In this document: piece after piece, positions 374 through 63,761 of the stretch
How the letters are laid out: every line of letters begins with the position of its first letter
Numbering within the stretch: the first letter of the stretch is position 1
DNA from: a virus
Reading direction: 5' to 3' (one strand)
Virus record (IMG/VR): IMGVR_UViG_3300038620_000134
Location: 1-64,000 of that record
Length of the DNA stretch: 64,000 nucleotides
Notes under the pieces: model-generated
Told to the model about the DNA's origin: nothing
Database searches by the model: none
What the model saw: only the letters and a program-made list of their open reading frames with translations
Translations under genes and position numbers: made by a program

Positions 374-1909
374 TTAGAACAGCTTTATTTTACCATTAAC
401 ATCAGAAACAGCTTTAACATCCTCTTCTGTAAACTGTTTATCATTTTTAAAACAAAAGAAAGCACCCCCAACTTCTTCAGGTGCACCTTTCAGGGATGTT
501 AAATTATTACGAGAACACATAAATCTACCCCCAACTTCTTCAGGTGCACCTTCCAGGGATGTTAATTTATTATCAGAACAATTAAAATCACCCCCAACTT
601 CTTCAGGTGCACCTTCAAGAGTTGTTAATTTATTAACAGGGCAAACAAAATCACCCCCAACTTCTTCAGGAGCACCTTCAAGGGATGTTAAATTATTATT
701 AGTGCAAACAAAATCACCCCCAACTTCTTCAGGAGCACCTTCAAGGGATGTTAATTCGTTATCATAACACATAAAACTACCCTCAACATTGTCAGGAGCA
801 CCTTCAAGGGATGTTAAATTATTATTAGAACACATAAAATTACCCCCAACATTGTCAGGAGCACCTTCAAGGGATGTTAAATTATTATTAGAACACATAA
901 AATCACCACTGACGTGTCCAAATTTATATTTTTTTATAACTTTTTTATAGTCCTCTGACTTATAATTAAAATTTACATCCCCATTAACATTAACAATGTT
1001 ATTTTTTGATATATTATAATTACCAGAAACAACATTTGAAAAAATATAATCTGTTTCATTAAAAATTGTTTTGTTATCATACGAATAAAGCCCATCGATA
1101 ACATCTCTAGTGAAAAATATAGCTTGTTCTGGTTCATTAGGATGAATGAACCAATCCTCTCCTTCATCAATAAATCCTTCAACACCCAAATCAAGATAAA
1201 TCTTTGTTTTAAGCTGTGGTCCGTTACTTTTCCCTAAAGCCAATAAAGCCAAATCAACATAATTATTTACAAAAAACCAAAGTATTTTTGTATACGAATC
1301 ATTATTTAAAGCATCTTCTAATTTTTCCCACTTTTCTTCAGGAACTTTTGAAATAACGTTAATATCGCTCACCAAACTATCTAAGTTAAAAAAAACTTCT
1401 GAAATATTTTCATTTATATAATTATACAATAATTCAAAAGCATCATCTGGAAGATTGTTTTTTAGTTTTTTGTTTGATTTACATACATCATAGAATTCTT
1501 TAATATGGTTAAAAGCATTTGAATTTTCAGTTAAAATTTTATTTTGTTTAATTTTATTTTGTTTAATTTTAAATAAATGAATTGTATTAGATTTATCAGG
1601 AACAAAAGGATAAACTTTTTCCAAACGTTTTTTTATTTCATCATTACTACTCTTATGTGTTAAATTTTTAGTTATTAAATCATAATCTTTTTTACTTAAC
1701 GGATATGCATAATATCCAGCAGGAGTATTATAACCAGTAAAAGGATTTATAAATGTTACAGTATCTTCTTCTCGAAATGAAATAAACCAGTTATCCAAAC
1801 TATCATTTCCAATAGTGTTTTTAATAAATTCAATAAAGTTTATTTTTCTATTAATTTCTGGATTTCTTCGTTTCTCTGTTAAATAGTCTTGAAAGGACTT
1901 TATTCGCAT
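374..1909 (-). CDS. LRR protein (7 full 21-aa repeats + cap); N-terminal domain shared with 10230..11186
   Basis: GGxFxCxxNxLTSLEGAPEEV repeats with a 63-bp period. N-terminus MRIKSFQDYLTE. WFISFR/TFINPFT/TPAGYY/IHPNEP motifs. Confidence 0.9.
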   Translation of the reverse strand: MRIKSFQDYLTEKRRNPEINRKINFIEFIKNTIGNDSLDNWFISFREEDTVTFINPFTGYNTPAGYYAYPLSKKDYDLITKNLTHKSSNDEIKKRLEKVYPFVPDKSNTIHLFKIKQNKIKQNKILTENSNAFNHIKEFYDVCKSNKKLKNNLPDDAFELLYNYINENISEVFFNLDSLVSDINVISKVPEEKWEKLEDALNNDSYTKILWFFVNNYVDLALLALGKSNGPQLKTKIYLDLGVEGFIDEGEDWFIHPNEPEQAIFFTRDVIDGLYSYDNKTIFNETDYIFSNVVSGNYNISKNNIVNVNGDVNFNYKSEDYKKVIKKYKFGHVSGDFMCSNNNLTSLEGAPDNVGGNFMCSNNNLTSLEGAPDNVEGSFMCYDNELTSLEGAPEEVGGDFVCTNNNLTSLEGAPEEVGGDFVCPVNKLTTLEGAPEEVGGDFNCSDNKLTSLEGAPEEVGGRFMCSRNNLTSLKGAPEEVGGAFFCFKNDKQFTEEDVKAVSDVNGKIKLF

Positions 1910-1925
1910 TATTATTTTTTTTTTA

Positions 1926-3176
1926 TTAAACTATTATTTTACCTTTAACATCAGAAACAGCTTTAACATCTTCTTTTGTAAAATCTTCTTCATTAAATCT
2001 ACAATTAAAGTTGCTTCCAACATATTCAGGAGCACCTTTAAGGGATGTTAGTTTATTAAACATACATTCAAAATATCCACCAACATATTCGGGTGCACCC
2101 TCAAGGGATTTTAAATTATTATATGTACAAAGAAAATGACCAACAACTGTTTTAGGTACACCTTTTAAATTTGATAAATTATTATCAGAGCAATCAAATT
2201 TACCACTAACATACCCAAATTTATAATTTTCTATAATTGTTTTATAAATTTGCGGTTGGCTTAATAAATCTACATGACCATCAACATGAATTGTACTTCC
2301 ATCTATCTTAAAAGTTCCTTCAACAACATCATTTAGTATAGCTTCAACTGAGGCATTTGGACTATATGCACACTTTCCAGCTCTATATAACCCTTTAAGT
2401 TGTTTGTATTTAGTTTTACTTAGTTTTTGATTCTTTTCAAGCCATGCATCAATGGTTTCTTTAAAACCTTTAACTGTTTCTCCTTTAATTTCTTCATTTC
2501 TAAACAGTGCAATTTCTTCACTATCTTCACTGACGTATGGTTTAATCAAAACCCGTGCAACGGGGTTATTAATGTTCAAGTCATCTTTTTTAATAAGATA
2601 TGCAATTATAGTTCCCTTTTTAACATCTTCCATTATATAAAATGTTTTACTTCCAGTATCTAAGTCCATACAACTAGTCCAACCTCTATCCGTGCTCATC
2701 CCCGCAATATCGTATGGATGCCGTGAAATAACTACTAAATAATCATCTTGTTTTCTTTGAGTTGATTTTTTAGAAAGTTCTTTTTCGTAATCACTTTTTA
2801 ATTTTTCAACATTTATATCACTCTTTTTAAGACCACTATCTTTCATTAAAACTTTTACAATACTGGTTGTTCTTTTATCCGAAACTGCTATATTCTTATT
2901 AAAATCTTCAACTTCATAATTTGTATATTCTAAAGCTTTATTTATTCTATCTCTAACATCTTTACTTATCTTTTGTTTCTCTTCCTCAGATTCTTTAAGT
3001 TCAAGATATAATCTATATTTCGGTTTTCCATTTTCTTTCTTTCCAAAAATATCTTGATAGAATTTTTCACCACCTGCTTCTTTCCATGTTTTAATATATG
3101 GTTTTGCTTGACTTGGATGAAGTGCTTCATCAATGGAACTCGAATTAATGTATTCTTGAAAAGATTTTAAGCGCAT
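1926..3176 (-). CDS. LRR protein paralog (3 repeats + cap)
   Basis: N-terminal domain (SRHPYDIAGMSTDRGWTSCMDL) nearly identical to 7686, 56053 and 61938. Confidence 0.9.
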   Translation of the reverse strand: MRLKSFQEYINSSSIDEALHPSQAKPYIKTWKEAGGEKFYQDIFGKKENGKPKYRLYLELKESEEEKQKISKDVRDRINKALEYTNYEVEDFNKNIAVSDKRTTSIVKVLMKDSGLKKSDINVEKLKSDYEKELSKKSTQRKQDDYLVVISRHPYDIAGMSTDRGWTSCMDLDTGSKTFYIMEDVKKGTIIAYLIKKDDLNINNPVARVLIKPYVSEDSEEIALFRNEEIKGETVKGFKETIDAWLEKNQKLSKTKYKQLKGLYRAGKCAYSPNASVEAILNDVVEGTFKIDGSTIHVDGHVDLLSQPQIYKTIIENYKFGYVSGKFDCSDNNLSNLKGVPKTVVGHFLCTYNNLKSLEGAPEYVGGYFECMFNKLTSLKGAPEYVGSNFNCRFNEEDFTKEDVKAVSDVKGKIIV

Positions 3177-3187: not shown

Positions 3188-4015
3188 TTATTTATTTGAT
3201 TTGTGTTCTTTTATAGTATTTTTAGAACTATAATTAACAGTATTAAAAACTGTATTATCATCTAAATCAAAGGCTTTAAGTTTACCTTTTATATTATAAC
3301 CAAACTGTTCTGGATGAACATCTCGCCACTTTATCCCTTGCTCATATAAAGACTTTATAACATTTACAATTTCTTTTATAAAGTTAAATTGACTTTTTGT
3401 ATAAAATTCTAAAATTGTGTTTAGTATTTCATTTATAATTTTACGGTTAAACTGATGGCAAATCTCAACTAAAAAACTCATAAAAGATGTTATTTTACCT
3501 ATCTTCATATTATACTTTTCTTTTAACATATCTCTAAATTCAATACCATAAAAATACTCATAATCACCATCAATATCTCTATTAAATACTTCTTCAACAT
3601 CTTCAAATTTACTTATAAATTTATCCATACTATACAGTCTTTCTTGAATAATATAACCTATTTTATCTTTTTTAGCAGTTGACATATAACCTAGTGAAAT
3701 GTTATCAATATATCGCTCTGGAACATGAATTATACCGTGTTGATAAACTTTAATAGCATTTTTAATGTTATTTTCATAAAGGAATTTTGCCATTTTAAGA
3801 TCATTTATTCCACCAACTATATCATTATTGGAAGTGCTAACAAATTTCATAATACGAAATTTGTCAATGGCGAAAACAACACCCGAACCACCACGTCCTA
3901 AAAAAGTTAATTCTTTTTTATTGAGATTCATTTGTGGTTTTAACCAGTTAAAAAAAGGTTTATAGTCTGTTTTCTTTTTTGATTTTACATAATCTTTGAA
4001 TTTTTCCAACTCCAT
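3188..4015 (-). CDS. Protein kinase-like protein
   Basis: Gly loop LGRGGSGVV, Lys in RIMKF, catalytic-loop-like WRDVHPEQ, DFG-like AFDLD. Confidence 0.75.
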   Translation of the reverse strand: MELEKFKDYVKSKKKTDYKPFFNWLKPQMNLNKKELTFLGRGGSGVVFAIDKFRIMKFVSTSNNDIVGGINDLKMAKFLYENNIKNAIKVYQHGIIHVPERYIDNISLGYMSTAKKDKIGYIIQERLYSMDKFISKFEDVEEVFNRDIDGDYEYFYGIEFRDMLKEKYNMKIGKITSFMSFLVEICHQFNRKIINEILNTILEFYTKSQFNFIKEIVNVIKSLYEQGIKWRDVHPEQFGYNIKGKLKAFDLDDNTVFNTVNYSSKNTIKEHKSNK

Positions 4016-7685: not shown

Positions 7686-9449
7686 TTAAACTATTATTTC
7701 ACCTTTAACATCAGAAACCGCTTTAACATCTTCTTTTGTAAATTTTTCTTCGTTAAGTCTACACTCAAAATTACCCCCAACTTCTTCAGGAGCACCTTCA
7801 AGGGAAATTAAATTGTTACGGTTACAATCAAAATCACCCCCAACTTCTTCAGGAGCACCTTCAAGGGAAGTTAAATTATTATTAGAACAATCAAAGTTAC
7901 CTCCAACTTCTTCAGGTGCACCTTCCAGGGATGTTAATTTATTAGCAGTACATTCAAAAGAATTTCCAATGTACTCAGGTACACCTTTAAGGGATGTTAA
8001 TTTGTTTTCAGTACAATCAAAAGAACCTTCAACGTGCTTAGGTGCACCTTTAAGAGATTTTAAGTTGTTTTCAGTACAATCAAAATCACCCCCAACTTCT
8101 TCAGGAGCACCTTCAAGGGAAGTTAAATTATTATTAGAACAATCAAAGTTACCTCCAACTTCTTCAGGTGCACCTTCCAGGGATGTTAATTTATTATAGT
8201 AACAATTAAATCCACCCCTAATTTTTTTAGGCGCGCCTTCAAGAGTTTTTAGTTTATTATATTTACAAATAAAATCACGTCCAACTTTTTCAGGTGCACC
8301 CTCAAGCGATGTTAAATTGTTTTCATCACAATAAAAATCACCCCCAACTTCTTTAGGTGCACCTTCCAGGGATGTTAATTTATTAAAAAAACAATAAAAA
8401 TCACCCCCAACTTCTTCAGGAGCACCTTTCAAGGATGTTAATTTATTATCACGACATTCAAAGTTGCCACTAACATATCCAAACTTATAGTTTTTTGTAA
8501 TTTTTTTGTAAAATATGGGTTCATCTTCTAATTTCAAATTACCCTTAATATTAATTGTGTTTCCATCTATTTCAAAAGTTCCTTCAACAAAATCATTTAG
8601 TATAGCTTCAACTGAAGCGTTTAGATTATATTCACATCTTCCCTCGTCATATAACCCTTTAAGTTGTTTGTATTTAGTTTTATTTAGTTTTTGATTCTTT
8701 TCAAGCCATGCATCAATGGTTTCTTTGAAACCTTTAACTGGTTCTCCTTTAACTTCATCTACTTCTTTATCTCTAAATAAAGCAATTTCTTCACCGTTTT
8801 CACTGACGTATGGTTTAATCAAAACCCGTGCAACAGGATTATTAATATTCAAGTCATCTTTTTTAATAAGATATGCAATTATAGTTCCCTTTTTAACATC
8901 TTCCATTATATGAAATGTTTGACCTCCAGTATCTAAGTCCATACAACTAGTCCAGCCTCTATTCGTGCTCATTCCTGCAATATCATAAGGGTGTCTTGAA
9001 ATCACTACAAGATAGTTATCTTGATTCCTTTGAGTTGATTTCTTATTAAGTTCTTTTTCGTAATCACTTTTTAACTTTTGAACATTTATATCACTTTTTT
9101 TAAGACCACTATCTTTCACTAAAACTTTTACAATACTGGTTGTTCTTTTATCCGAAACTGCTAGGTTTTGGTTAAAATTTTCAACTTCATAGTTTGTATA
9201 TTCTAAGGCTTTATTAATTCTATCTCTAACATCTTTGCTTATCTTTTGTTTTTGTTCTTCAGACTCTTCGAGTTCTAAGTAAAGTCTATATTTGGGTTTC
9301 CCATTTTCTTTCTTTCCAAAAATATCTTGATAGAATTTTTCACCACCTGCTTCTTTCCATGTTTTAATATATGGTTTTGCTTGACTTGGATGAAGTGCTT
9401 CATCAATGGAAGTCGAATTAATGTATTCTTGAAAAGATTTTAAGCGCAT
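7686..9449 (-). CDS. LRR protein paralog (11 repeats + cap)
   Basis: Same N-terminal domain; 11 GAP-type repeats counted. Confidence 0.9.
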   Translation of the reverse strand: MRLKSFQEYINSTSIDEALHPSQAKPYIKTWKEAGGEKFYQDIFGKKENGKPKYRLYLELEESEEQKQKISKDVRDRINKALEYTNYEVENFNQNLAVSDKRTTSIVKVLVKDSGLKKSDINVQKLKSDYEKELNKKSTQRNQDNYLVVISRHPYDIAGMSTNRGWTSCMDLDTGGQTFHIMEDVKKGTIIAYLIKKDDLNINNPVARVLIKPYVSENGEEIALFRDKEVDEVKGEPVKGFKETIDAWLEKNQKLNKTKYKQLKGLYDEGRCEYNLNASVEAILNDFVEGTFEIDGNTINIKGNLKLEDEPIFYKKITKNYKFGYVSGNFECRDNKLTSLKGAPEEVGGDFYCFFNKLTSLEGAPKEVGGDFYCDENNLTSLEGAPEKVGRDFICKYNKLKTLEGAPKKIRGGFNCYYNKLTSLEGAPEEVGGNFDCSNNNLTSLEGAPEEVGGDFDCTENNLKSLKGAPKHVEGSFDCTENKLTSLKGVPEYIGNSFECTANKLTSLEGAPEEVGGNFDCSNNNLTSLEGAPEEVGGDFDCNRNNLISLEGAPEEVGGNFECRLNEEKFTKEDVKAVSDVKGEIIV

Positions 9450-9475
9450 TGTTAGTTTTTATATTTATTTTATAA

Positions 9476-10229: not shown

Positions 10230-11186
10230 TCATAAGTTACTTGGTAAGTTTTGTTTATTAAATTTAAAATCGTAAGAATGTATTTCATCTACTACATCCT
10301 TTGTAAAAAATACTGCCTGAGTGGGTTCATTAGGATGAATATAACCACCACCATCATCTTCAGATAAGTCATCAACAAAACCTTTAATATTAAGGTCTAG
10401 AAATATTTTTGTTTTTAATCTTGCTACATCTTTTGGGTTTGATTCAGTTCCTCCCAATTCACCAAATAAATCAACAAAGTACCATATTCTGTTAGGTTCC
10501 CAAACTTCTTCTATGGCTTCATATAAAGCATCAAGTGTTTCCCTTTTAAATGGATACTCTGCTTTAACATCTTCAATTAATTCACTTACTTTTTCATAAT
10601 AATCATCATATTCATCATGAACTTCACTTGGCATATGATAAACAACTATTCGTAAAAGATCAAATAATTCATCTATTATTTGAGAATATACTTTATAATT
10701 TTTTTCTGTAACATATTTATAAAGTTTTTTTAAATACACTCCATCAGATGATTCATGGTTTAGTATTTCTTCACCCAAGTAATTTTCCTTTACTTTAACC
10801 ATTTCAATTATATTAAGATTTTCCCATTCTGGAAGATATGGAAAAGACAATTTCATTGCCTGCCAAAACTCCTCTTCACCTTTCCATTTGCGTAATTCAA
10901 AATTTCCTGTATGCCATTTACTTAAATAATTTAACAAATAATCTGGCCATTGTTTTGTTGTAGTTGGATAGCAATAATAACCAGCAGGTGTTTCAAATTC
11001 TGTAAAAGGATTTATAAATGTTGTTGTTCTTTTTTTTCTAAATGAAATAAACCATGGTTCTAATCCATCATCAAAGTCATCTGTTACTCTAATTATAAAG
11101 TCATATAGGTTTTCTTTTTTATTAACGTCTGGACGTCTTCTTTTTTCTGTTATAAACTCGCTTAATGTTTTTATTCTATTTTTCAT
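10230..11186 (-). CDS. Stand-alone paralog of the 374..1909 N-terminal domain (possibly ADP-ribosyltransferase-like)
   Basis: Shared WFISFR, TFINPFT, TPAGYY.YP, KTKI.LDL, GF.D and IHPNEP.QA.FFT motifs. Confidence 0.75.
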   Translation of the reverse strand: MKNRIKTLSEFITEKRRRPDVNKKENLYDFIIRVTDDFDDGLEPWFISFRKKRTTTFINPFTEFETPAGYYCYPTTTKQWPDYLLNYLSKWHTGNFELRKWKGEEEFWQAMKLSFPYLPEWENLNIIEMVKVKENYLGEEILNHESSDGVYLKKLYKYVTEKNYKVYSQIIDELFDLLRIVVYHMPSEVHDEYDDYYEKVSELIEDVKAEYPFKRETLDALYEAIEEVWEPNRIWYFVDLFGELGGTESNPKDVARLKTKIFLDLNIKGFVDDLSEDDGGGYIHPNEPTQAVFFTKDVVDEIHSYDFKFNKQNLPSNL

Positions 11187-17649: not shown

Positions 17650-17678
17650 TAACTACTATTTTTTGACATATTTATAAG

Positions 17679-17751
17679 AGCTAGCAGGGAGACTCGAACT
17701 CCCAACCTTTTCATTACAAGTGAAATGCTCTGCCAATTGAGCTATGCCAGC
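17679..17751 (-). tRNA. tRNA-Thr(TGT)
   Basis: Reverse complement GCTGGCATAGCTCAATTGGCAGAGCA-TTTCA-CTTGTAA-TGAAA-AGGTTGGGAGTTCGAGTCTCCCTGCTAGCT. Confidence 0.92.
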
Positions 17752-23880: not shown

Positions 23881-23968
23881 AGGGGGATGGCAGAGCGGTC
23901 GATTGCACCGGTCTTGAAAACCGGCAGCCAGCTACGCTGGTTCGGGGGTTCGAATCCCTCTCCCCCTG
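23881..23968 (+). tRNA. tRNA-Ser(TGA)
   Basis: AGGGGGA/TCCCCCT acceptor stem, CCGGT-CTTGAAA-ACCGG anticodon arm, long variable arm, GTTCGAATC. Confidence 0.93.
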
Positions 23969-41080: not shown

Positions 41081-41100
41081 GTTAAAGGTTAGAATAGTTG

Positions 41101-41185
41101 GATGCACCTGAAGAAGTTGGGGGTGATTTTAATTGTAACCGTAACAATTTAGCATCCCTTGAAGATACAACCTAAAAAGGTTGGG
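41101..41185 (+). repeat. Orphan non-coding LRR repeat cassette
   Basis: Reads DAPEEVGGDFNCNRNNLASLEDT, then after a 1-nt insertion PKKVG; nearly identical to 63147..63230. Confidence 0.85.
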
Positions 41186-41192
41186 AAAGTTT

Positions 41193-41223
41193 ACAGGATG
41201 GTTTACAACCATCCTGTTTTTTT
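41193..41223 (+). terminator. Intrinsic terminator
   Basis: ACAGGATGGTT-TAC-AACCATCCTGT followed by a T-run, between convergent genes. Confidence 0.75.
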
Positions 41224-50899: not shown

Positions 50900-51687
50900 G
50901 AACAACAGGTATAACACCATCAGAAAAAGAAGACTTTGCATCTGAAAACAGAAAAACCGATACTTATGTGGGTGAAATTGTAGATGCATCCGACCCCGAA
51001 CAAAAATATAGGGCGAGAGTTAGGGTTCATGGTTTATTTGATGACTTAGATTCAGATGCTATTCCGTGGGCAATTCCGGGTAATGCAACAAATTTTTCGG
51101 GTGGTGGTGCTGGAAACGTTAGTTATCCAAAAGAGGGTAGCAGAGTTATGGTAAGATTTTTTAACGGGGATATTTACCATCCAATTTACTATTTTAATAT
51201 GCACTTAGATGATAATATGGCTAATGAAATTGCAAATCCCTATGAAAATTCACATTCGATACTTTATGATAGTGATGAAGAACTTAAAATATATTACAAC
51301 AATAATCAAGGACTATATTTTGAATTAAAAGGTGCAACTGCTGTTATTAATAATGATGGTAATATAACTTTGAATCATTCAGATTCTCAATCTACCATAG
51401 AACTTGTTGGTGGTGATATAAGAATTACCAGTAATGCAACAGTTGATGTATCAACACAAAGACAAGCCACTATAACAGCGCAAACTGTTCATGTAAATGG
51501 AACACAAACAGATATAGGTGCAAGTCCAATATTTTCAGCAGTCAATGGAGAAACCCTTATGGGAACACTTAAAGCAATTGCGAGTGCAGTTGATGCTAAG
51601 TTTCCGCCTACGCCGGGAGTAACTGCAAGCTCTGTAAATGCGGCTGAACAAACAATTCTTTCACAAACTGTTTCTACATCTCCTTAA
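50896..51687 (+). CDS. Baseplate central spike (gp5/VgrG OB-fold)
   Basis: GEIVD..DPE...RARVRV.G...PWA...P..G..V.V.F..GD...P followed by a beta-rich C-terminus. Confidence 0.85.
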   Translation: MRTTGITPSEKEDFASENRKTDTYVGEIVDASDPEQKYRARVRVHGLFDDLDSDAIPWAIPGNATNFSGGGAGNVSYPKEGSRVMVRFFNGDIYHPIYYFNMHLDDNMANEIANPYENSHSILYDSDEELKIYYNNNQGLYFELKGATAVINNDGNITLNHSDSQSTIELVGGDIRITSNATVDVSTQRQATITAQTVHVNGTQTDIGASPIFSAVNGETLMGTLKAIASAVDAKFPPTPGVTASSVNAAEQTILSQTVSTSP

Positions 51688-56026: not shown

Positions 56027-56034
56027 TATAAATA
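56027..56034 (+). promoter_or_regulatory. T4-type late promoter TATAAATA
   Basis: Exact consensus, 18 bp upstream of the LRR gene ATG. Confidence 0.65.
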
Positions 56035-56052
56035 AATAAAAAAAAAATAACA

Positions 56053-57573
56053 ATGCGAATAAAATCTTTCCAAGAATACATTAATTCGACTTCCATTGAT
56101 GAAGCACTCCATCCAAGTCAAGCAAAACCATATATTAAAGCATGGAAAGAAGCTGGAGGTGAAAAATTTTATCGTGACATCTTTGGAAAGAAAGAAAATG
56201 GAAAACCCAAATATAGACTTTACTTGGAGCTTAAAGAATCCAAAGAGCAGAAACAAAAGATAAGCAAAGATGTTAGGGATAGAATCAATAAAGCTTTAGA
56301 ATATACAAATTATGAAGTTGAAGATTTTAATCAAAATTTAGCAATTTCAAAAGATGGTGAAAATACTAAAAAAGTAACAAGTGAACTTTCAAAAAATAAA
56401 AAATTAAAAAAACAAGATGAAATTAATATAGATAAACTCCTTCAAGATTACAGTGAGGAACTAAGTAAAAAGTCAACCCAAAGAGAACAAGACGATTATC
56501 TTGTAGTAATTTCACGGCATCCATACGATATTGCGGGGATGAGCACCGATAGAGGTTGGACTAGTTGTATGGACTTAGATACTGGAAGTCAAAAATTCTA
56601 TGTAATGGAAGATGTTAAAAAGGGAACAATTATAGCTTATTTAATTAAAAAAGATGACTTGAATATTAATAATCCTGTTGCACGGATTTTAATAAAACCT
56701 TATGTTAGTGGGGACGGTGAAGAAATTGCACTGTTTAGAGATAAAGAAGTAGATGAATTTAAAGGAGAACCAGTTAAGGGATTTAAAGAAACAATTGATG
56801 CTTGGCTAGAAAAGAATCAAAAGTTAAGTAAAACCAAGTATTATCAACTTCAAGGATTGTATAAAGATGGAAAGTGTGAATATAATCCAGATGCTCCAGT
56901 TAAAGCTATACTAAATGATTTTGTTAAAGGAACTTTTGAAGTAGATGGAAACACAATTAGTGTTAATGGGAATGTAAATTTACGTAGAAAACCTAAAGTT
57001 TTTAAAAAAATTACAAAAAACTATAAGTTTGGATATGTTAGTGGTAATTTTAATTGTTCTAATAATAATTTAACATCCCTTGAAGGTGCACCTGAAGAAG
57101 TTGGGGGTTATTTTATTTGTGAGTATAACAAATTAACATCCCTTGAAGGTGCCCCTGAAAAAGTTGGGGGTAGTTTTATGTGTTCTCGTAATGGATTAAC
57201 ATCCTTGGAAGGTGCACCTGAAGAAGTTGTAAGTGGTTTTATTTGTGATGATAATAATTTAACATCCCTTAAAGGTGCCCCTGAAAAAGTTGGGGGTAGT
57301 TTTATTTGTTATAGGAATGGTTTAACATCCCTTGAAGGTGCACCCGAAAAAGTTGGAGGTGAATTTGATTGTAGATTTAATCAATTAACATCCCTTGAAG
57401 GTGCACCTGAAAAAGTTGGAGGTGATTTTTATTGTAGATTTAATCAATTAACATCCCTTGAAGGTGCACCTGAAAAAGTTGGAGGTGATTTTTATTGTGG
57501 TAAGAATAAAAAAGATTTTACAAAAGAAGATGTTAAAGCTGTTTCTGATGTTGAAGGTGAAATAAAAGTTTAA
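56053..57573 (+). CDS. LRR protein paralog (7 repeats + cap)
   Basis: Same N-terminal domain with one divergent block (ISKDGENT...DYSEE). Confidence 0.9.
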   Translation: MRIKSFQEYINSTSIDEALHPSQAKPYIKAWKEAGGEKFYRDIFGKKENGKPKYRLYLELKESKEQKQKISKDVRDRINKALEYTNYEVEDFNQNLAISKDGENTKKVTSELSKNKKLKKQDEINIDKLLQDYSEELSKKSTQREQDDYLVVISRHPYDIAGMSTDRGWTSCMDLDTGSQKFYVMEDVKKGTIIAYLIKKDDLNINNPVARILIKPYVSGDGEEIALFRDKEVDEFKGEPVKGFKETIDAWLEKNQKLSKTKYYQLQGLYKDGKCEYNPDAPVKAILNDFVKGTFEVDGNTISVNGNVNLRRKPKVFKKITKNYKFGYVSGNFNCSNNNLTSLEGAPEEVGGYFICEYNKLTSLEGAPEKVGGSFMCSRNGLTSLEGAPEEVVSGFICDDNNLTSLKGAPEKVGGSFICYRNGLTSLEGAPEKVGGEFDCRFNQLTSLEGAPEKVGGDFYCRFNQLTSLEGAPEKVGGDFYCGKNKKDFTKEDVKAVSDVEGEIKV

Positions 57574-57715
57574 TAAAAACTTAATAAAACTATATACTAA
57601 CAAAAGCAATATCATGAGCTTTTTTGCTTACTTTAGATTTATAAGTATTTTCTAATCGATAGCGATACTCCCTTAAAAATTTTGATTAACTCTCCCATTC
57701 ATTTTTTAAAGGATT

Positions 57716-57898
57716 TCAAAATAGTAACGTTACTTTATCAGTATTTTGTAAAACCTTTTTTCTGTTTTCATACAACGCTTTATCCATGTTACATCTATCT
57801 GGAAAATAAAACAGCCTAGCATCAGTTGTTCCAATATAAATATAGGTATAAAACTCACGTTTTAATTCATAGTAGGCAGGATCTAACTTATTAAGCAC
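57716..57898 (-). CDS. Small hypothetical protein
   Basis: 60 aa; start uncertain. Confidence 0.4.
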   Translation of the reverse strand: MLNKLDPAYYELKREFYTYIYIGTTDARLFYFPDRCNMDKALYENRKKVLQNTDKVTLLF

Positions 57899-57939
57899 CT
57901 CTTCAAGTGTACAAACATTAATTGTAACTTTTAAATTTG

Positions 57940-58152
57940 TTACTGTTTTATAAGTTCATACAGCACTGCTACTAATGGTATATTAAAAATAAAAATACCT
58001 ATTAAACTAAAGACTTTTTCAAAAGTAGTTGATTCGTCTTTAAATAAGAGTATATAAAATTTAACATATCCAATTAAATAAGCTGTAAAGTATACTGAAA
58101 GTATGATAACTGTTAAATAATCCATAATTAAAAAAATTTGAACTTTAGCCAA
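57940..58152 (-). CDS. Small membrane protein
   Basis: Two hydrophobic helices; probable start MDYLTV; early promoter upstream. Confidence 0.55.
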   Translation of the reverse strand: MAKVQIFLIMDYLTVIILSVYFTAYLIGYVKFYILLFKDESTTFEKVFSLIGIFIFNIPLVAVLYELIKQ

Positions 58153-58189
58153 GTTTTCTTTAGAAGAAAATTCTTTTCCACTTCAATCT

Positions 58190-58220
58190 TAAATATAATA
58201 CATTTAAGACCCTCTGTCAA
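58190..58220 (-). promoter_or_regulatory. Early promoter TTGACA-N17-TATATTTA
   Basis: Minus strand, conserved spacing. Confidence 0.6.
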
Positions 58221-58294
58221 GCTTCAATTAAAAAATATTAAAAGTGTTACACTTTTTTAAGTAAAATAAATAAATAAATAAAAAAAATCAAAGC

Positions 58295-61200
58295 ATGGCA
58301 GAAGTCGCAACTAATTTTAACGTTAATCTTGATAGATACAAAGCATCTGGCGTATATTTAGCTGAAATAGATCGTTCAGCCGAACAACAACAAACTGCAA
58401 GCCCAACAACTCGTGTTGTAATTGGTTTTTCCCGTAAAGGCCCCGTTATGACACCTGTTTATTTGGAACGCAAAGAAACAGCACGTGATGTTTTTGGTGA
58501 AATTGATGAATCACTTGAAAGAAAAGGGTCATTTTTTCACAGAACTATTGATACTTGCCTGAATGAAGGACCTGTTTTTGCAATTAACATGATTCCATTT
58601 GTTAATGAAGTTGATGACTTAGGCAATCCAACTGCCGATGCTGATGTTGCTCCATATAGGTCTTTTTCAACTGATGTTACTGGTGATAACGGACGCGGTG
58701 AATGGGACACACCCACACCATCTCCAGATGTTTTTCCATTCAATCATCCTCGGTTTTCGGGTTACAATCTAAGACTTTATACAAGTTACTATAACAAAGA
58801 ACGTTTTTGGTTTCCAAGTGTAGATAATCTTTTAGCAACTCGCGTTGATGAAGATAAAGTTACAAATCTAAATGGTAGAGTAATTGGTGGAAAAATTCTT
58901 AACTTTGTTAATCTGGGCAAAACACCTATAACTGTTTTTGTAAGAAAAGCACCATCAAATAAAACTGATGGTTTTAGATTAACTGCTCGTGAATGGTATG
59001 AAGATAACGAAGATATTCCACCTTTTGTTAAAGAGTCTGATTATATATCAGATTACTTTTTAGAAGTAATATTAGTAAAAGGTAATTTTGGAAAGTCTTC
59101 ATATGAAGATTTAAGTAATGATCAGTTTTTAAATCCCTATTTTACAGAAAATGGAATAATTGCTGATAAGTTTGATGAACTACTTGATAGCAATTTAATT
59201 CCTGTAATTTCTCGATTTGTTGGAACCATTATTCCAAACTTCCGAGATAAGCAAGATATTGACTGGTTTATAGAAGATATAATTAACCGCCAATTTGCAA
59301 GAACTGGATTATTTTGTGCTGTTGACACAAATGAACTTGATCGCTATGAAACAGGGCAAAATGATTACTATGTAGATTTTGTAGGTCACAGACTTTTAGA
59401 CACAAGTAACTTTACTGAAAATAATCCAGACTGGAATGGTAACATTGACTTCTTAAGCTACAGAACTCCATTCAAAGAGAATCTTAAATATGAACAAGTT
59501 TCTTTGCCTATTAATATGGCCAATCCGAATTCTATTTTTGCTGGTGATGCTAATTTTACCAGTGATAGTGTTTCTGAATTAAGTAATGATGATTTAATTT
59601 CTAATAATGTTATTGAATTTTTAGAAAATCAAAATTCCGATAGCAGATTTTCATTTTACATTTATGATACAATAGATCAAGCAACAGGTAGTTATTACGC
59701 CAATTCACTTTTTGATAAGCTTAGTAATTTAACTCCTAATGATTCTTATATTGTTTTAGATATTGTTTTAGATGACAATAATGTAAATACACCACCTGTA
59801 ACAACTAAGCTTTACACTCAAGTTAAAAAGCTACTTCAACAAAATGTTGGAAATCAAACTGCCATTAAAGTTGAAGTTGAAAACTTGACTGATGTTAGTG
59901 GAAGCACTAACATGGAACCATATACAAATATAAGTTTAGAAAGTGGTGCCTTTACCCATCTGGTTTTTGAAAGAGATGGTTTTAATGCTGGTATTGGATC
60001 ATCTCCCACCTTCTTATATGCGAATAAAAATTCAAAATTATATCAAGATTGGAAAAATGGTGTTATTGCCGATGGTGATAAAGTGTTCCATGATATTGGC
60101 TCCACCAATGATACATATTTTGATGAATTTTACACCATTGAGTTTGAACAAACAAAAGACCCAAACTTTAAGGATCTTGTTTTGAAAGTTAACTTCTTTA
60201 ACCCGAATGGAAGTTCCTTTAACATTTCTAATCTTATTTTCCAAGCTGGTGAAAACTATGTTAAAAATTCAAATAATCCTGATGCAACAAGTCCAGCAGC
60301 TTTAACACCAAATCAAGCTGGTTACTTAAATGTTGTTTCTAATAGTGGAAGTCTTAATACTTATGTTGATTATCAAGCATTTCCCGATACCAGTGTTAAA
60401 AATCGAGTGTTAATACCTGATATACCAGCATGGAGAGATGATGCACGACCTGGTAACTTTATTCGGGCTAAGGATCGTAATGATAATCCCATCCTTGCCC
60501 GTATTACTAGAGTTCGTGGTGGTTATGAATACAATGGAATGAAATGGTTAAATGTAGAAAGTGTTGCAAGAATTGAACCATTTGAAGTTTTTGGAACACC
60601 CGAAACTACACCACAGGGATATACAATAAAAGGAACTGTAGAAATTTGGCGCCCTATTGAAAATAGTATCAAGTATATTGATGGTACTTATTTGAATGGA
60701 CTTCAACTAAATGATAATCACATACCAAAACCGAATGAAAGTTATGTTAGAGAATTTTATAAGCTGTTAGAAGATACGAATCTTAAAGAAGCTCTTTCAG
60801 ATAAAAATCAAATTACATGGAGGTATGTAGTAGATACATTTAACCAAGGACTTGATGAAATGTCTGGCGGTAAACAATATCTTACACGTCTTGCTAAAAG
60901 CCGTTGGAAAGCATTGGCATTTGTTAATGCTCCATCCATTCAAGAATTTATTGATAGTACTGACCCAATTTTTACTGAACTGCCAACGCCTAGAAGCCCA
61001 CGCCCAACGCTAAAAACTGAATACATAGCAACGGGTGGTAACTTAGATCAAAATCCAAACAGGATTTATTCGTTGCCAGATTTTGATAATGGTGCGAGTC
61101 ATTCTGGTTTCTTTATTCCAAATATTATAATTCGAGATGGTAACAAAACAGTTTCTGTTCCACCTGCTGCATACATTTCAAATCTTTATGTAAGAAAGTT

Positions 61201-61744
61201 CAAAAATGGTAATCCATTTCAAGCAATTGGTGGTAATAGAAAGGGTAGAATTACTGGTGCTAACATATCTGGATTAGAGTATGACTTTACCAAATCAGAT
61301 AGGGCCAATATAGAACCCTTTGGACTAAATCCAATGGTTAAACGACCAGATGGGTCTATTGTTGTAATGGGTGAAAGAACAGCGTATCAACGCGTTAATT
61401 CTCAACTAAACGGATTGCATGTTCGGGATGTTCTTATTTCAATTGAAATTCAAATTGAGAATATATTGGAAACTTATCTTTTTGAACCCAATGATGATGC
61501 AACAAGAAACGCAATTGAAAATGAAATTAGTTCATATCTTGAAACTGTTTTTGTAAATGATGGCATTCGACAAAATTATGAGGTGAAAATGGATTCTTCA
61601 AACAATGGGCCGGATGTTATTTCAGAAAACTTTGGCATTGTTGATGTTAAAGTTGAACCCGTTGGTGCTATTTACAAATATCTTAACAGGGTTTCTATTT
61701 TACCAAGTGGTGGACTAAATTCATCTGGATTTCAACCCGCTTAA
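58295..61744 (+). CDS. Contractile tail sheath protein (T4 gp18-like) with large insertions
   Basis: SGVYLAEIDRS, GFSRKGPV..P, VPPAAY, G.RKG.I, GLNP, GERT, LHVRDVL and LFEPND..TR. Confidence 0.93.
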   Translation: MAEVATNFNVNLDRYKASGVYLAEIDRSAEQQQTASPTTRVVIGFSRKGPVMTPVYLERKETARDVFGEIDESLERKGSFFHRTIDTCLNEGPVFAINMIPFVNEVDDLGNPTADADVAPYRSFSTDVTGDNGRGEWDTPTPSPDVFPFNHPRFSGYNLRLYTSYYNKERFWFPSVDNLLATRVDEDKVTNLNGRVIGGKILNFVNLGKTPITVFVRKAPSNKTDGFRLTAREWYEDNEDIPPFVKESDYISDYFLEVILVKGNFGKSSYEDLSNDQFLNPYFTENGIIADKFDELLDSNLIPVISRFVGTIIPNFRDKQDIDWFIEDIINRQFARTGLFCAVDTNELDRYETGQNDYYVDFVGHRLLDTSNFTENNPDWNGNIDFLSYRTPFKENLKYEQVSLPINMANPNSIFAGDANFTSDSVSELSNDDLISNNVIEFLENQNSDSRFSFYIYDTIDQATGSYYANSLFDKLSNLTPNDSYIVLDIVLDDNNVNTPPVTTKLYTQVKKLLQQNVGNQTAIKVEVENLTDVSGSTNMEPYTNISLESGAFTHLVFERDGFNAGIGSSPTFLYANKNSKLYQDWKNGVIADGDKVFHDIGSTNDTYFDEFYTIEFEQTKDPNFKDLVLKVNFFNPNGSSFNISNLIFQAGENYVKNSNNPDATSPAALTPNQAGYLNVVSNSGSLNTYVDYQAFPDTSVKNRVLIPDIPAWRDDARPGNFIRAKDRNDNPILARITRVRGGYEYNGMKWLNVESVARIEPFEVFGTPETTPQGYTIKGTVEIWRPIENSIKYIDGTYLNGLQLNDNHIPKPNESYVREFYKLLEDTNLKEALSDKNQITWRYVVDTFNQGLDEMSGGKQYLTRLAKSRWKALAFVNAPSIQEFIDSTDPIFTELPTPRSPRPTLKTEYIATGGNLDQNPNRIYSLPDFDNGASHSGFFIPNIIIRDGNKTVSVPPAAYISNLYVRKFKNGNPFQAIGGNRKGRITGANISGLEYDFTKSDRANIEPFGLNPMVKRPDGSIVVMGERTAYQRVNSQLNGLHVRDVLISIEIQIENILETYLFEPNDDATRNAIENEISSYLETVFVNDGIRQNYEVKMDSSNNGPDVISENFGIVDVKVEPVGAIYKYLNRVSILPSGGLNSSGFQPA

Positions 61745-61765
61745 ACTTTTTACCTAGGATCGTTG

Positions 61766-61800
61766 AAGGGAAGAAATAATATTATTTTCTTCCCTTTTTT
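61766..61800 (+). terminator. Intrinsic terminator after the sheath gene
   Basis: AAGGGAAGAAA...TTTCTTCCCTT followed by TTTT. Confidence 0.75.
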
Positions 61801-61814
61801 ATATAAATAAAATA

Positions 61815-61919
61815 TCAGAAAGTATTAACTGTAATTTTAATTGTATTAACAATAAAAAAAAAGAATTTACAGAAGAAGTTAAGGATGTTATAAATGTTGA
61901 AGGAGAAATAGGGGTTTAA
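61815..61919 (+). pseudogene. Remnant of an LRR-gene terminal repeat and cap
   Basis: Reads SESINCNFNCINNKKKEFTEEVKDVINVEGEIGV*, versus PEKVGGDFYCGKNKKDFTKEDVKAVSDVEGEIKV*; TATAAATA at 61802; no ATG. Confidence 0.7.
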
Positions 61920-61937
61920 TAAATAAAAAAAATAATA

Positions 61938-63761
61938 ATGCGAATAAAATCTTTCCAAGAATACATTAATTCGAGTTCCATTGATGAAGCACTCCATCCA
62001 AGTCAAGCTAAATCTTATATTAAAGCATGGAAAGAAGCTGGAGGTGAAAAATTTTATCGTGACATCTTTGGAAAGAAAGAAAATGGAAAACCCAAATATA
62101 GACTTTACTTAGAACTCGAAGAGTCTGAAGAACAAAAACAAAAGATAAGTAAAGATGTTAGAGATAGAATCAATAAAGCTTTAGAATATACAAACTATGA
62201 AGTTGAAAATTTTAATAAGAATATAGCGGTTTCGGATAAAAGAACAACCAGTATTATAAAAGTTTTAATGAAAGATAGTGGTCTTAAAAAGAGTGATATA
62301 AATGTTCAAAAGTTAAAAAGTGATTACGAAAAAGAACTTAATAAGAAATCAACTCAGAGAAAACAAGATAACTATCTTGTAGTGATTTCGCGTCATCCAT
62401 ACGATATTGCTGGAATGAGCACGGATAGAGGTTGGACTAGTTGTATGGACTTAGATACTGGAGGTCAAACATTTCATATAATGGAAGATGTTAAAAAGGG
62501 AACTATAATTGCATATCTTATTAAAAAAGATGACTTGAATATAAACAACCCTGTTGCACGGGTTTTAATAAAACCTTATGTTAGTGAAGATAGTGAAGAA
62601 ATTGCTTTATTTAGAGATAATTATAAAGAAATTAAAGGAGAACCAGTAAAGGGATTTAAAGAAACAATTGATGCTTGGCTAGAAAAGAATCAAAAGTTGA
62701 GTAAAAGTAAGTACAAACAACTTAAAGGACTATATGACGAGGGAAGATGTGCTTATAATCCAGATGCTTCAATTGAAGCTATATTAAATGATTTTGTTAA
62801 AGGAACTTTTGAAGTAGATGGAAACACAATTAGTGTTAATGGGGATGTAAATTTACGTAGAAAACTTGAAGTTTTTAAAAAAATTACAAAAAACTATAAG
62901 TTTGGATATGTTAGTGGTGATTTTTACTGTTCTAATAACGACTTAACTTCTCTTGAGGGTGCTCCTGAAGAAGTAGGTGGTAATTTTAATTGTGAGTATA
63001 ACAAATTAACATCCCTTGAAGGTGCACCTGGAGAAGTTGGGGGTGATTTTGATTGTAAATTTAATAATTTACGAACACTTGAAGGTTCACCTGAAAAAGT
63101 TGGGAGTAATTTTAGTTGTATATTTAATAAATTAACAACTCTTGAAGGTGCACCTGGAGAAGTTGGGGGTGATTTTGATTGTTCCCATAACAATTTAGCA
63201 TCCCTTGAAGATGCACCTAAAAAGGTTGGGGGTGAATTTAATTGTCTTGGTAATAGTTTAACATCCCTTAAAGGTGCCCCTGAAAAAGTTGGGGGTAAAT
63301 TTAACTGTAGTGGAAACCAATTAACATCACTCGAAGGTGCTCCTGAAAAGGTTGGGGATAATTTTATTTGTAGATCTAATAAATTAACTTCCCTTGAGGG
63401 TGCTCCTGAAAAGGTTGGGGGTAGTTTTATTTGTTATAGGAATGATTTAACATCCCTTAAGGGCACACCTAAAAAGGTTGGGGATGATTTTTATTGTATG
63501 AATAATAAATTAACATCCCTTGATGGAGGACCTGAAGAAGTTGGGGGTCGTTTTGATTGCTCTCATAATAAATTAACTTCCCTTGATGGTGCTCCTAAAA
63601 AAATTGGAAGTGATTTTAGTTGTACGTTTAACAAATTAACATCTCTTCAAAGTGCACCCGAAAAAGTTGGAGGTGATTTTGATTGTAGATTTAATAGAGA
63701 AAATTTTACAAAAGAAGATGTAAAAGCTGTTTCTGATGTTGAAGGTGAAATAAAAGTTTAA
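61938..63761 (+). CDS. LRR protein paralog (12 repeats + cap)
   Basis: Same N-terminal domain; 12 repeats counted. Confidence 0.9.
   Translation: MRIKSFQEYINSSSIDEALHPSQAKSYIKAWKEAGGEKFYRDIFGKKENGKPKYRLYLELEESEEQKQKISKDVRDRINKALEYTNYEVENFNKNIAVSDKRTTSIIKVLMKDSGLKKSDINVQKLKSDYEKELNKKSTQRKQDNYLVVISRHPYDIAGMSTDRGWTSCMDLDTGGQTFHIMEDVKKGTIIAYLIKKDDLNINNPVARVLIKPYVSEDSEEIALFRDNYKEIKGEPVKGFKETIDAWLEKNQKLSKSKYKQLKGLYDEGRCAYNPDASIEAILNDFVKGTFEVDGNTISVNGDVNLRRKLEVFKKITKNYKFGYVSGDFYCSNNDLTSLEGAPEEVGGNFNCEYNKLTSLEGAPGEVGGDFDCKFNNLRTLEGSPEKVGSNFSCIFNKLTTLEGAPGEVGGDFDCSHNNLASLEDAPKKVGGEFNCLGNSLTSLKGAPEKVGGKFNCSGNQLTSLEGAPEKVGDNFICRSNKLTSLEGAPEKVGGSFICYRNDLTSLKGTPKKVGDDFYCMNNKLTSLDGGPEEVGGRFDCSHNKLTSLDGAPKKIGSDFSCTFNKLTSLQSAPEKVGGDFDCRFNRENFTKEDVKAVSDVEGEIKV

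Follow-up and report, generated by a model that had tools for sequence, protein, structure and literature searches.

Leucine-rich repeat proteins with a variable face and a T4-like leader in a large uncultured phage

Introduction

Why would a phage keep five genes built from the same short leucine-rich repeat (LRR), with a nearly invariant framework and a few highly variable positions? These genes (A to E) are located in a window of 64,000 nucleotides, positions 1 to 64,000 of the IMG/VR virus record IMGVR_UViG_3300038620_000134, which is the whole stretch of DNA analysed here. The whole record has 81.7 kb and, at 31% completeness, represents only part of the genome of a large, uncultured phage. 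A sequence-only reading of the window had likened the family to an antibody or lamprey VLR repertoire, where recombination between 63-bp units generates binders, possibly against host defence proteins. The answer that we favour, and to which we give an even chance of being right, is that the five genes encode inherited effectors that would be packaged in the phage head, injected into the host and aimed by their LRRs, the packaging and the targets being predictions.

Composition of the repeat family

Tandem Repeats Finder located a 63-bp array in each of the five genes (Table 1). When anchored on the G-A-P motif, genes A to E contained 7, 3, 11, 7 and 12 LRR units, respectively (40 in total), and the anchors were exactly 21 residues apart in 35 of 35 within-gene intervals, corresponding to a DNA period of 63 bp. 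At the N-terminal side of each array there was a half unit, GYVSGxFxCxxNx, and at the C-terminal side all five genes had the common cap FTxEDVKAVSDVxGxIxV. Thus, the anchoring reproduced both the repeat numbers and the constant cap that had been read from the sequence previously.

The unit register was L1-T-S-L4-E-G-A-P8-E-E-V11-G-G-x14-F15-x16-C17-x18-x19-N20-x21, where all 40 units had L1, L4, P8, F15, C17 and N20. Entropy reached 2.3-3.4 bits at positions 14, 16, 18, 19 and 21 only, while position 10 had 1.8 bits and the remaining unit positions had at most 1.2 bits. This per-position profile over the 40 units agreed with the near-invariant framework and the variable x positions described earlier.

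The family is slightly bigger than first noted. Namely, it also includes a leader-bearing gene at the contig edge, an LRR-less paralog of the front domain N2 and a stray repeat unit. The latter (83 bp, non-coding) is a relic of a lost copy. The rest of the 81.7-kb record (17.7 kb outside the window) was also searched and contained no additional LRR copy.

Table 1. Coordinates of the LRR genes and associated features in the window
Feature	Coordinates	Strand	63-bp array (Tandem Repeats Finder)	Description
Gene A, 511 aa	374..1909	-	459-907	Leader MRIKSFQDYLTE, N2 (~residues 13-290), LRR N-cap, 7 units (440-880), C-cap
Gene B, 416 aa	1926..3176	-	2017-2137	Leader, front domain N1, 3 units (array 1989-2177), C-cap
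Gene C, 587 aa	7686..9449	-	7760-8449	Leader, N1, 11 units (array 7749-8441), C-cap
Gene D, 506 aa	56053..57573	+	57062-57499	Leader, N1, 7 units (array 57070-57510), C-cap
Gene E, 607 aa	61938..63761	+	62943-63696	Leader, N1, 12 units (array 62943-63698), C-cap
~4-unit block in gene E, common to the G002 gene-A ortholog	63106..63371	+		90.2% over 266 bp
Edge gene (sixth leader-bearing gene), truncated by contig end	3..320	-		Starts MRIKSFRDYLSE...; body unlike N1 or N2
LRR-less N2 paralog, 318 aa	10230..11186	-		35% identity to gene A residues 1-300; leader variant MKNRIKTLSEFITE
Stray single LRR unit	41098..41185	+		No start codon, stop inside; spacer between ParB-like gene and convergent gene
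ATAAATA(AATA) late-promoter-like motif	56028..56038	+		21-25 bases 5' of gene D
ATAAATA motif	61919..61925	+		19 bases 5' of gene E
ATAAATA motif	3189..3195	-		19 bases 5' of gene B
ATAAATA motif	9462..9468	-		19 bases 5' of gene C
Triple ATAAATA	58266..58280	+		5' of tail sheath gene (58295-61744)

Fold of the repeat and its variable face

A phmmer search against PDB sequences matched the solved LRR of InlJ (PDB 3bz5) in register over 162 residues (E 7.3e-15). In this alignment F15, C17, N20 and L1 corresponded to the L, C, N and L/I of InlJ, and the Cys was matched in every aligned repeat. SspH1 (5e-7) and IpaH7.8 (3e-4) were returned as well, and the matches were confined to the LRR part. 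The NCBIfam family internalin_J matched at E 2.4e-20, with a score of 72 bits as compared to the family cut-off of 1700. In the AlphaFold model, pLDDT of the LRR part was at least 94, and each unit had one short strand at F15-x16. Foldseek with this model identified YopM (E 3.9e-6), SspH2, IpaH3 and InlJ, and LRR structures filled the listing. By homology and modelling, the repeat is an internalin-J-type cysteine-ladder LRR, which would form a right-handed solenoid with an Asn ladder. Therefore, the variable residues can be assigned to the x positions of the concave strand. The placement on this strand had already been proposed from the sequence, and both the InlJ register and the predicted strand bore it out.

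The phage repeat resembled InlJ of Listeria monocytogenes in having a 21-residue period, an Asn ladder, the L-T-x-L continuation and a strand whose second core residue is Cys instead of the Leu of LxxLxLxxN, but the second half of the unit (E-G-A-P-E-E-V-G-G) was different. Moreover, InlJ is secreted and anchored in the cell wall on the bacterial surface, whereas the phage proteins have other N- and C-terminal parts, in which Pfam and NCBIfam revealed no internalin-specific domain other than LRR. The overall architecture was similar to the IpaH/SspH and YopM type III effectors, where a short LRR solenoid is combined with a separate effector domain and paralogs differ in the LRR face. Unlike IpaH/SspH, the phage proteins had the effector-like domain first and the LRR last, a 21-residue unit with Cys instead of a 20-residue one, and no C-terminal NEL E3 ligase domain in Pfam scans. 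Delivery would differ from that of type III effectors too, since here it would occur by phage ejection.

Selection on the variable codons

The sequence-only reading had proposed a dN/dS analysis of the units. Over all unit pairs, piN/piS was 1.8 at the five variable codons and 0.32 in the framework. For 31 nearest-neighbour pairs, dN at the variable codons divided by dS was 1.75 (bootstrap 1.29-2.41) versus 0.29 for the framework, where the value above 1 was a rough estimate because paralogous nearest-neighbour units were compared and the codon bias of the genome was strong. In the same pairs, the amino acid was replaced in 91 of 155 variable codons, as compared to 63 of 496 framework codons. 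Thus, the variable codons outpaced synonymous sites.

Recombination between units and genes

Recombination in this family is real but evolutionary in pace. In the N1 coding parts of genes B-E, the topology supported by 67 informative sites changed in runs (clustering reached in 0 of 10000 shuffles), so these N-terminal domains are mosaics. Units C5 and C9 were identical at 63 of 63 bases, which represents a tandem duplication of one unit in gene C. Sharing of residues within a gene was above chance (12 pairs versus 4.1 expected; reached in 2 of 2000 shuffles). Blocks also moved between phages: a gene with a different N-domain in the record of a related phage (G002) carried a gene-E block of 2-4 units, identical at 124 of 126 bases (63168-63293).

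The modules that had been reported as recurring across genes did exist. Namely, FMCSRN was found in A6 and D2, CEYNK in D1 and E1, and D4 matched E8 at 57 of 63 bases, including a 45-base stretch with one difference. However, recurrence between genes was not above chance, with 3 pairs sharing at least four of the five variable residues versus 1.16 expected (227 of 2000 shuffles reached this number), and the identity within and between genes was equal (48.0 vs 47.5 of 63 bases). Since nearest units differed by dS of about 0.2, most units were old. Thus, recombination of 63-bp units as a source of diversity was upheld with respect to mosaics, duplication and block exchange, but no programmed generator was found in the 81.7-kb record.

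A programmed system similar to antibodies or VLRs, in which frequent unit recombination or targeted mutagenesis makes new binders within the phage population, would fit variation that is limited to binding-face codons, the evident unit duplication and block exchange, and the stray unit in a spacer. The family indeed resembles lamprey VLRs in the fixed LRR framework, the caps at both ends, the varying unit number and the variable concave strand. In VLRs, the germline gene is incomplete and is filled by somatic assembly with silent cassettes that flank it. In contrast, every phage gene was complete and inherited, with its own promoter-like motif and leader, and there was no cassette bank: the sole extra unit of the 81.7-kb record was the 83-bp relic. 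The unit divergence, the equal identities and the chance-level recurrence between genes speak against such a system as well. We therefore consider it very improbable, and the antibody-like mechanism of the sequence-only reading was not supported.

A diversity-generating retroelement was considered separately and rejected. There was no adenine bias (95 of 135 differences at variable codons involved A versus 73% expected from composition), an RVT_1 search of the 81.7-kb record, itself a fragment, gave no reverse transcriptase match, and no near-identical template copy was found.

The stretch was present in four tidal-flat runs, where contigs from the arrays were only 150-450 bases long. In these short contigs, the arrays had many variant joints, as frequent unit recombination would produce, and they were indistinguishable from paralogs or related phages mapping there. 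The single-copy sheath region was covered without any difference in run X1. A separate 1,099-bp contig, possibly from the same sample, repeated the gene D array letter for letter, which argues against ongoing diversification.

Leader and upstream motif

New here are a T4-like leader on all five genes and the edge gene and a late-promoter-like motif before most of them, the same as that of the tail sheath gene. The leader had 12-17 residues and ended in [LI]xE, the end sites being LTE-K in gene A, LSE-Q in the edge gene and IDE-A in genes B-E. The gp21 cleavage site follows the rule [LI]xE. According to the T4 record, ipII and ipIII start with MKTYQEFIAE-A and ipI with MKTFKEF...ITE-A, while the leaders of this phage read M-R-I-KSFQDYLTE-K and KSFQEYINSSSIDE-A. 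In the 81.7-kb record, just 6 ORFs had the strict leader pattern, and these had three unrelated protein bodies. Residues 1-15 of the structural model were disordered. A looser pattern also matched twice elsewhere, at an internal start (26458) and in an ORF of 87 aa (78468); these two unrelated ORFs were not counted.

The T4 proteins IPI, IPII, IPIII and Alt carry a similar leader, K-[ST]-[FY]-x-[ED]-[FY]-h ... [LI]xE followed by A or K, on unrelated proteins, and they also form a multi-member, diverse set. However, the T4 internal proteins have 95-193 aa and no LRRs, whereas the proteins described here have 416-607 aa with a repeat binding module and are predicted to be packaged and cleaved. 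In the available text of PMC3012670, the internal proteins of T4 appear as a varied group directed against host defences, with the capsid-targeting sequence as their sole common part. Because of this, the earlier suggestion that the repertoire may act against host defence fits the T4-like leader.

Similar leaders were found outside this phage. Among 148 N1 representatives that were mutually <50% identical, 71 had an E-A-h-x-[PLI]-[ST] junction no further than residue 60 (in most cases at residue 8-15), although E-A-L-x-P-S is the first conserved element of N1 and its conservation thus need not mean a cleavage site. L or I occupied E-2 in 60 of 70 N1-family leaders. In other jumbo phages, LRR-only paralogs bore T4-like leaders of their own. 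Peptidase_S77, the T4-type prohead protease, was detected in 2 of 5 records searched (G002 and G005), and G002 also holds gene A orthologs. The present 31%-complete record contained no head gene and no prohead protease.

ATAAATA was located within 45 bases upstream of 19 of the 59 ORFs, including the sheath gene, a baseplate-module gene and genes B-E, while about 1-1.5 such ORFs were expected from the 84 sites in 81.7 kb. Gene A and the edge gene had variants of ATAAATA only. Judging by its place before the tail sheath gene, the motif resembles a late-gene promoter.

The leader and its upstream region were nearly identical as DNA across the genes, as expected from copied gene starts, and in G002 a B-type upstream region was joined directly to an A-type gene. 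Together with the lack of a protease or head gene in this record, these observations would fit late intracellular proteins that stay unpackaged and find their binding partners, proteins of the host or of the phage, in the cell that makes them (for example in host takeover, control of assembly or superinfection exclusion), with the common N-terminus being a relic of descent and gene-start recombination. We regard this explanation as unlikely. The leader was kept on three unrelated bodies, descent within one phage cannot explain the [LI]xE-A junction in the diverse N1 representatives, and the LRR-only paralogs of other jumbo phages had leaders of their own.

If the proteins are packaged effectors, their genes would be transcribed late, alongside the virion genes, and the leader would direct the products to the core of the prohead and be cut off there by a gp21-type protease. 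The proteins would then be ejected with the DNA into the next host cell, and the LRR face would bind a host protein, bringing the front domain to it. Over evolutionary time the panel would gain variety through tandem duplication and loss of units and gene conversion among paralogs. Co-occurring phages would also swap blocks of several units, and in each unit five codons would be under diversifying selection.

Front domains

N1, the front domain of genes B-E, was very widespread in phages and had the invariant residue set D/R/W/C/Y/D/P. It also occurred within two proteins of ~1800 residues, one of them with ART-PolyVal, and its other partners included the repeat modules DUF4116 (7 of 36 scanned) and WG_beta_rep (6 of 36). 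Foldseek against PDB returned nothing for N1 at E of at most 0.001, a profile search of PDB sequences was also empty, and VIA-align gave middling, weak GNAT-fold rows (best Z 5.8). Nine weak structural rows of PcfJ-like type (E 0.015-0.2) were present among the 50 matches listed in BFVD, with an Atlas lead of 0.88. Profile comparison itself did not place N1 in PcfJ (PF14284), with no Pfam match and an hhalign probability of 0.2%. The label 'putative exonuclease' on an Erwinia phage homolog of N1 found no support either.

N2, the front domain of gene A, was rarer than N1. An Atlas language-model lead pointed to ART-type domains (ART-PolyVal, RES, DUF3990) with a score of 0.84, and the structure rows had TM of 0.5-0.6. 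The invariant residues of N2 included R46, T62 and E259, the catalytic set of the ADP-ribosyltransferase fold being R-S/T-E or H-Y-E. There was no Pfam match for N2 at E up to 10 and none by PDB profile; Pfam applied to its homologs identified LRR only.

Genomic position

Gene D was located between the baseplate genes and the tail sheath gene, and gene E directly 3' of the latter. This position in the tail module, on either side of the sheath gene and with the same upstream motif, would suit proteins on the virion surface or tail (adhesins or accessory fibres) that recognise the host, their LRR face binding the host envelope and the paralogs widening or switching the host range. Reports on other phages, as far as their available text goes, point in the same direction: candidate host-recognition proteins of phage Goslar have LRR or beta-helix domains, and an LRR-like protein was reported in a vibriophage tail module. 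Nevertheless, we find a role in host recognition at the virion surface or tail unlikely. Genes A, B and C had non-structural genes as neighbours, and the leader was similar to a head-targeting peptide, not to a tail-assembly motif. Domain scans detected no fibre, trimerisation, baseplate-attachment or carbohydrate-binding domain. Additionally, N1 was found in giant proteins of the polyvalent type, and a Vibrio phage LRR protein with 56% identity adjoined a DnaB-like helicase.

Distribution and wider implications

Beyond this phage, we tentatively suggest, while considering it more doubtful than probable, that T4-related and jumbo phages have widespread and so far undescribed head-packaged effectors. 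In these, an exchangeable, fast-evolving LRR array would aim an enzymatic front domain (N1, PcfJ-like or the ART-like N2) at proteins of the host, for instance those of defence systems, and co-occurring phages would draw on a common specificity pool of circulating LRR blocks. Such phage proteins would parallel the LRR-guided type III effectors known from bacteria. If the packaged-effector reading is correct, the idea of T4 internal proteins, a diverse cargo with only a head-targeting tag in common that is injected first and aimed at host defences, would hold for a great many uncultured phages, and the cargo would be a modular binding scaffold with specificity readable from five residues per repeat. 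If it is wrong, nothing would set these genes apart from other LRR paralogs, in which a variable face is usual. In addition, a small 21-residue cysteine-ladder scaffold that varies naturally at defined positions could be of interest for binder engineering.

We found no paper on this family in the literature on LRR proteins of jumbo or huge phages and on internal head proteins. LRRs in dsDNA viruses are the topic of a review (Arch Virol 2021), as cited in the available part of PMC10945359, and PMC5512222, on polyvalent proteins, had no mention of PcfJ, LRR, DUF4116 or ART-PolyVal. In annotated phage records, the surroundings of the homologs were all 'hypothetical', and the proteins of phages and metagenomes that share N1, or the same array and caps behind a PcfJ domain, are all uncharacterised. 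Since N1 (2322 representative clusters) and the LRR array with its caps (>3900 database proteins, many metagenomic ones with a PcfJ N-domain) are abundant and unannotated, one result in a cultured relative would annotate thousands of proteins. A search for strain-level relatives returned, among viral contigs, only distant ones (33-55%) plus one at 78% whose array differed, and among metagenome contigs two distant matches (41% and 50%). The multi-copy organisation itself was common to other jumbo-phage records, which had 5-18 LRR copies each.

The LRR arrays and their variable face

From sequence, the five leucine-rich repeat (LRR) genes of the window (A to E) were best read as a panel of leader-tagged proteins that is inherited and recombines. 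In this reading, the LRR array would direct the front domain of each protein to host targets, and delivery would probably be from the phage head. What the window added was the fusion of LRRs to large front domains of two types, a family-wide [LI]xE-A junction of N1 (the front domain of genes B to E), and a documented block transfer between paralogs that differ in architecture.

When the 21-residue units were counted by their G-A-P anchor, the spacing was exactly 21 residues and the total was 40. The LRR arrays described by the sequence-only reading were confirmed, and its count for each gene and the modules that it cited were correct on recount. Six positions were invariant in all 40 units. 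High entropy was limited to unit positions 14, 16, 18, 19 and 21, with position 10 moderate. In all five genes the array was also capped at both ends, N-terminally by an LRR cap that includes a half unit and C-terminally by FTxEDVKAVSDVxGxIxV.

A Pfam scan of the LRR genes gave no model at its cut-off. The AlphaFold model of the gene E product, built on a 16-sequence alignment, had a mean pLDDT of 83.6 (at least 94 throughout the array). Every unit had a short strand at F15-x16, and positions 10-11 made a second bridge. YopM, SspH2, SDS22, IpaH3 and InlJ were among the Foldseek matches of this model in the PDB (7 rows at E <=0.001). By sequence, the closest solved relative was internalin J (3bz5; E 7.3e-15), followed by SspH1 (5e-7) and IpaH7.8 (3e-4). 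Because the internalin J alignment was in register, with phage F15, C17, N20 and L1 on its L, C, N and L/I, it placed the five variable positions at the x positions of xLxCxxNx, i.e., on the strand and the following turn. It is established that the x positions of the strand form the concave face in LRR proteins. Thus, with this last step taken from general knowledge, the alignment supported the earlier claim that the variable residues lie on the concave strand.

Divergence and selection of the units

Mean likeness between units was 47.6 of 63 bases (48.0 within genes vs 47.5 between genes), and units 5 and 9 of gene C were the only identical ones. Over all unit pairs, piN/piS was 1.8 at the five variable codons vs 0.32 in the framework, and synonymous diversity was equal (0.31 and 0.33, respectively). 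Among 31 nearest-neighbour pairs, the amino acid changed at 91 of 155 variable codons vs 63 of 496 framework codons. For these pairs, dN of the variable codons over dS of all codons was 1.75 (bootstrap 1.29-2.41) vs 0.29 for the framework, values that are rough since the units are paralogs, the pairs are non-independent and codon bias is strong. A ratio above 1 at the variable codons against a low one in the framework points to diversifying selection on these five codons.

Front domains

N1 covered residues ~18-275, carried the motif S-R-H-P-Y-D-I-A-G-M-S-T-D-R-G-W-T-S-C and was found in 2322 representative clusters at E <=0.001. Of the 36 representatives scanned, 7 had DUF4116 repeats behind N1 and 6 had WG repeats, with no known module there otherwise; N1 was also embedded in two proteins of ~1800 residues, one of them with ART-PolyVal. 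Its invariant residues included H153, D156, R164, C169, Y193 and D199. By pattern search, at least two LRR units were present in only 4 of 148 N1 representatives. The N1 model was confident (pLDDT 88.8); its comparison with solved structures gave no clear relative, just GNAT-like rows with Z <=5.8. The BFVD matches listed were jumbo-phage proteins that are uncharacterised, with PcfJ-like proteins as weak matches. When N1 was compared by profile with PcfJ-LRR proteins, the outcome was negative.

The front domain of gene A (N2, residues 13-290) was distinct from N1 and had few relatives (6 proteins including gene A); the repeat-less paralog at 10230-11186 was among these six. An Atlas lead connected it to ART-type families (score 0.84); it is a lead only, and Pfam and PDB profile searches gave it no support.

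Because PcfJ domains were joined to the same LRR module in many metagenomic proteins, the array behaves as a portable module. Other jumbo-phage records had 5-18 copies each of the same LRR. Tandem clusters encoding small LRR-only proteins (177-346 aa) were located at ~38.7-50.6 kb of G005 (locus L009; 319 kb, complete) and ~33.7-48.1 kb of G003 (locus L012), with 12 and 18 matches to the array, respectively.

The N-terminal leader and expression signals

All five genes started with M-R-[IL]-K-S-F-Q-[ED]-Y-[IL], gene A included despite its different body, and an ORF at the window edge (3-320, minus) started likewise with a third kind of body. In the T4 record, ipII and ipIII start with MKTYQEFIAE-A and ipI with MKTFKEFTSTTTPVSTITE-A. 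The leaders of the window closely resembled these, sharing K-[ST]-[FY]-x-[ED]-[FY]-h and after it [LI]xE with A or K as the next residue. The T4 protease gp21 cleaves after [LI]xE. Cleavage of this kind would make A18 the mature N-terminus in genes B to E, behind a 17-residue leader, and K13 that of gene A. An E-A-h-x-[PLI]-[ST] junction occurred within the first 60 residues of 71 of 148 N1 representatives, mostly at residue 8-15, and L or I stood two residues ahead of the junction E in 60 of 70. The LRR-only paralogs of the jumbo-phage records G005 and G003 each had their own conserved leader of a similar type (MKRIxNYKTFINE... or MKLQELFLKEE...). The Peptidase_S77 (T4 gp21) domain was found in G002, a further phage record, and in G005; it was absent from the present record, a 31%-complete fragment, and no head genes were found across its whole 81.7 kb. 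In a review, the T4 internal proteins were described as diverse anti-defence proteins whose sole shared part was the capsid-targeting sequence (PMC3012670).

Of 59 ORFs, 19 had ATAAATA upstream at a distance of no more than 45 bases. Among them were genes B to E, the N2-only paralog, a baseplate-module gene and the sheath gene, which had three copies that overlap; variants of the word preceded gene A and the edge gene. Since the record had 84 such sites on both strands, simple arithmetic gave ~1 upstream occurrence by chance. The word resembles TATAAATA, the T4 late promoter.

Recombination and turnover

The sequence-only reading had proposed an antibody-like or VLR-like repertoire produced by recombination. 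A role of recombination was supported by mosaics, unit sharing and a block shared with G002. In the N-terminal coding parts of genes B to E, 67 informative sites were split 35/22/10 over the three quartet groupings, in runs (adjacent agreement 48 vs 26.0 ± 3.6, reached in 0 of 10000 shuffles). Within genes, 12 unit pairs shared at least 3 of the 5 variable residues vs 4.1 expected (2 of 2000 shuffles). Module recurrence across genes held for the examples cited earlier, but between-gene sharing was no higher than chance, either for at least 3 of 5 residues (22 vs 15.6; 115 of 2000 shuffles) or for at least 4 of 5 (3 vs 1.16; 227 of 2000).

G002 carried a gene A ortholog (72.6% identity over 1338 bp) with a 266-bp array piece 90.2% identical to gene E. 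At window 63168-63293, 124 of 126 bases were identical, including the unusual framework L-A-S-L-E-D-A-P-K-K of unit 5 of gene E, and this was the clearest case of block exchange. Also in G002 (locus L013, 10833-11164 vs window 4033-3881 and 3324-3145), a B-type upstream region and start were fused directly to the A-type gene, and the bodies of ORF 3188-4015 and gene B were absent. Because of this fusion, the promoter and leader stretch that the genes have in common may serve as a recombination joint by which whole genes are added or deleted.

Contigs from two tidal-flat sequencing runs (X1 and X2; joints at window 57104 to 63582) had array letters of a relative, G001, between LRR framework sequences. 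Therefore, related LRR-bearing phages co-occur in these samples, which would permit the observed block exchange.

The antibody-like or VLR-like mechanism itself was not supported. All five genes were complete, nothing resembling a donor cassette bank and no reverse transcriptase was found in the 81.7-kb record, and the differences between units had no adenine bias. We read recombination and turnover of the LRR genes as real, but acting over evolutionary time. One broken LRR unit was located in a spacer (41098-41185). Directly 3' of it, between two convergent genes, a hairpin with a T run (41186-41221) looked like a terminator.

Genomic setting

The IMG/VR record was 81,724 bp long and judged 31% complete, and the window, its first 64 kb, had a G+C content of ~30%. 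Because PHROG matches included sheath and baseplate proteins as well as a clamp loader, a helicase, a dNMP kinase, a ParB-like protein and a DNA methyltransferase, the window was assigned to a large myovirus genome.

Features of the window
Feature	Position	Strand	Units	Remark
Gene A	374-1909	minus	7	ORF with 63-bp tandem array
Gene B	1926-3176	minus	3	ORF with 63-bp tandem array
Gene C	7686-9449	minus	11	ORF with 63-bp tandem array
N2 paralog	10230-11186			repeat-less
tRNA Thr-TGT	17678-17751			
tRNA Ser-TGA	23881-23969			
tRNA Asn-GTT	29054-29127			
tRNA Leu-TAA	38029-38116			
Baseplate hub and baseplate proteins	50896-51687			PHROG match
Gene D	56053-57573	plus	7	ORF with 63-bp tandem array
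Tail sheath	58295-61744			PHROG match
Gene E	61938-63761	plus	12	ORF with 63-bp tandem array

A TnpB-type gene (24784-25974, plus) was located within the phage replication-gene region; it had HTH_OrfB_IS605, OrfB_IS605 and Cas12f1-like TNB domains and a PHROG 'transposase' match (E 5e-130). Several ORFs of 700-1358 aa had no match whatsoever. Two large ORFs gave only weak Pfam hints: 11638-13545 (minus) hinted at an RNA ligase (25 bits, below the cut-off), and 34440-36521 (plus) at a GREB1-type SF2 helicase with circular permutation (26.3 bits, at the cut-off).

Across the whole record, a GGA-containing Shine-Dalgarno-like word was found 4-20 bases before the start in just 1 of 58 ORFs, and A-rich stretches preceded the starts instead. 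Such stretches without Shine-Dalgarno words are typical of Bacteroidota and their phages, and this weak usage may be a clue to a Bacteroidota host.
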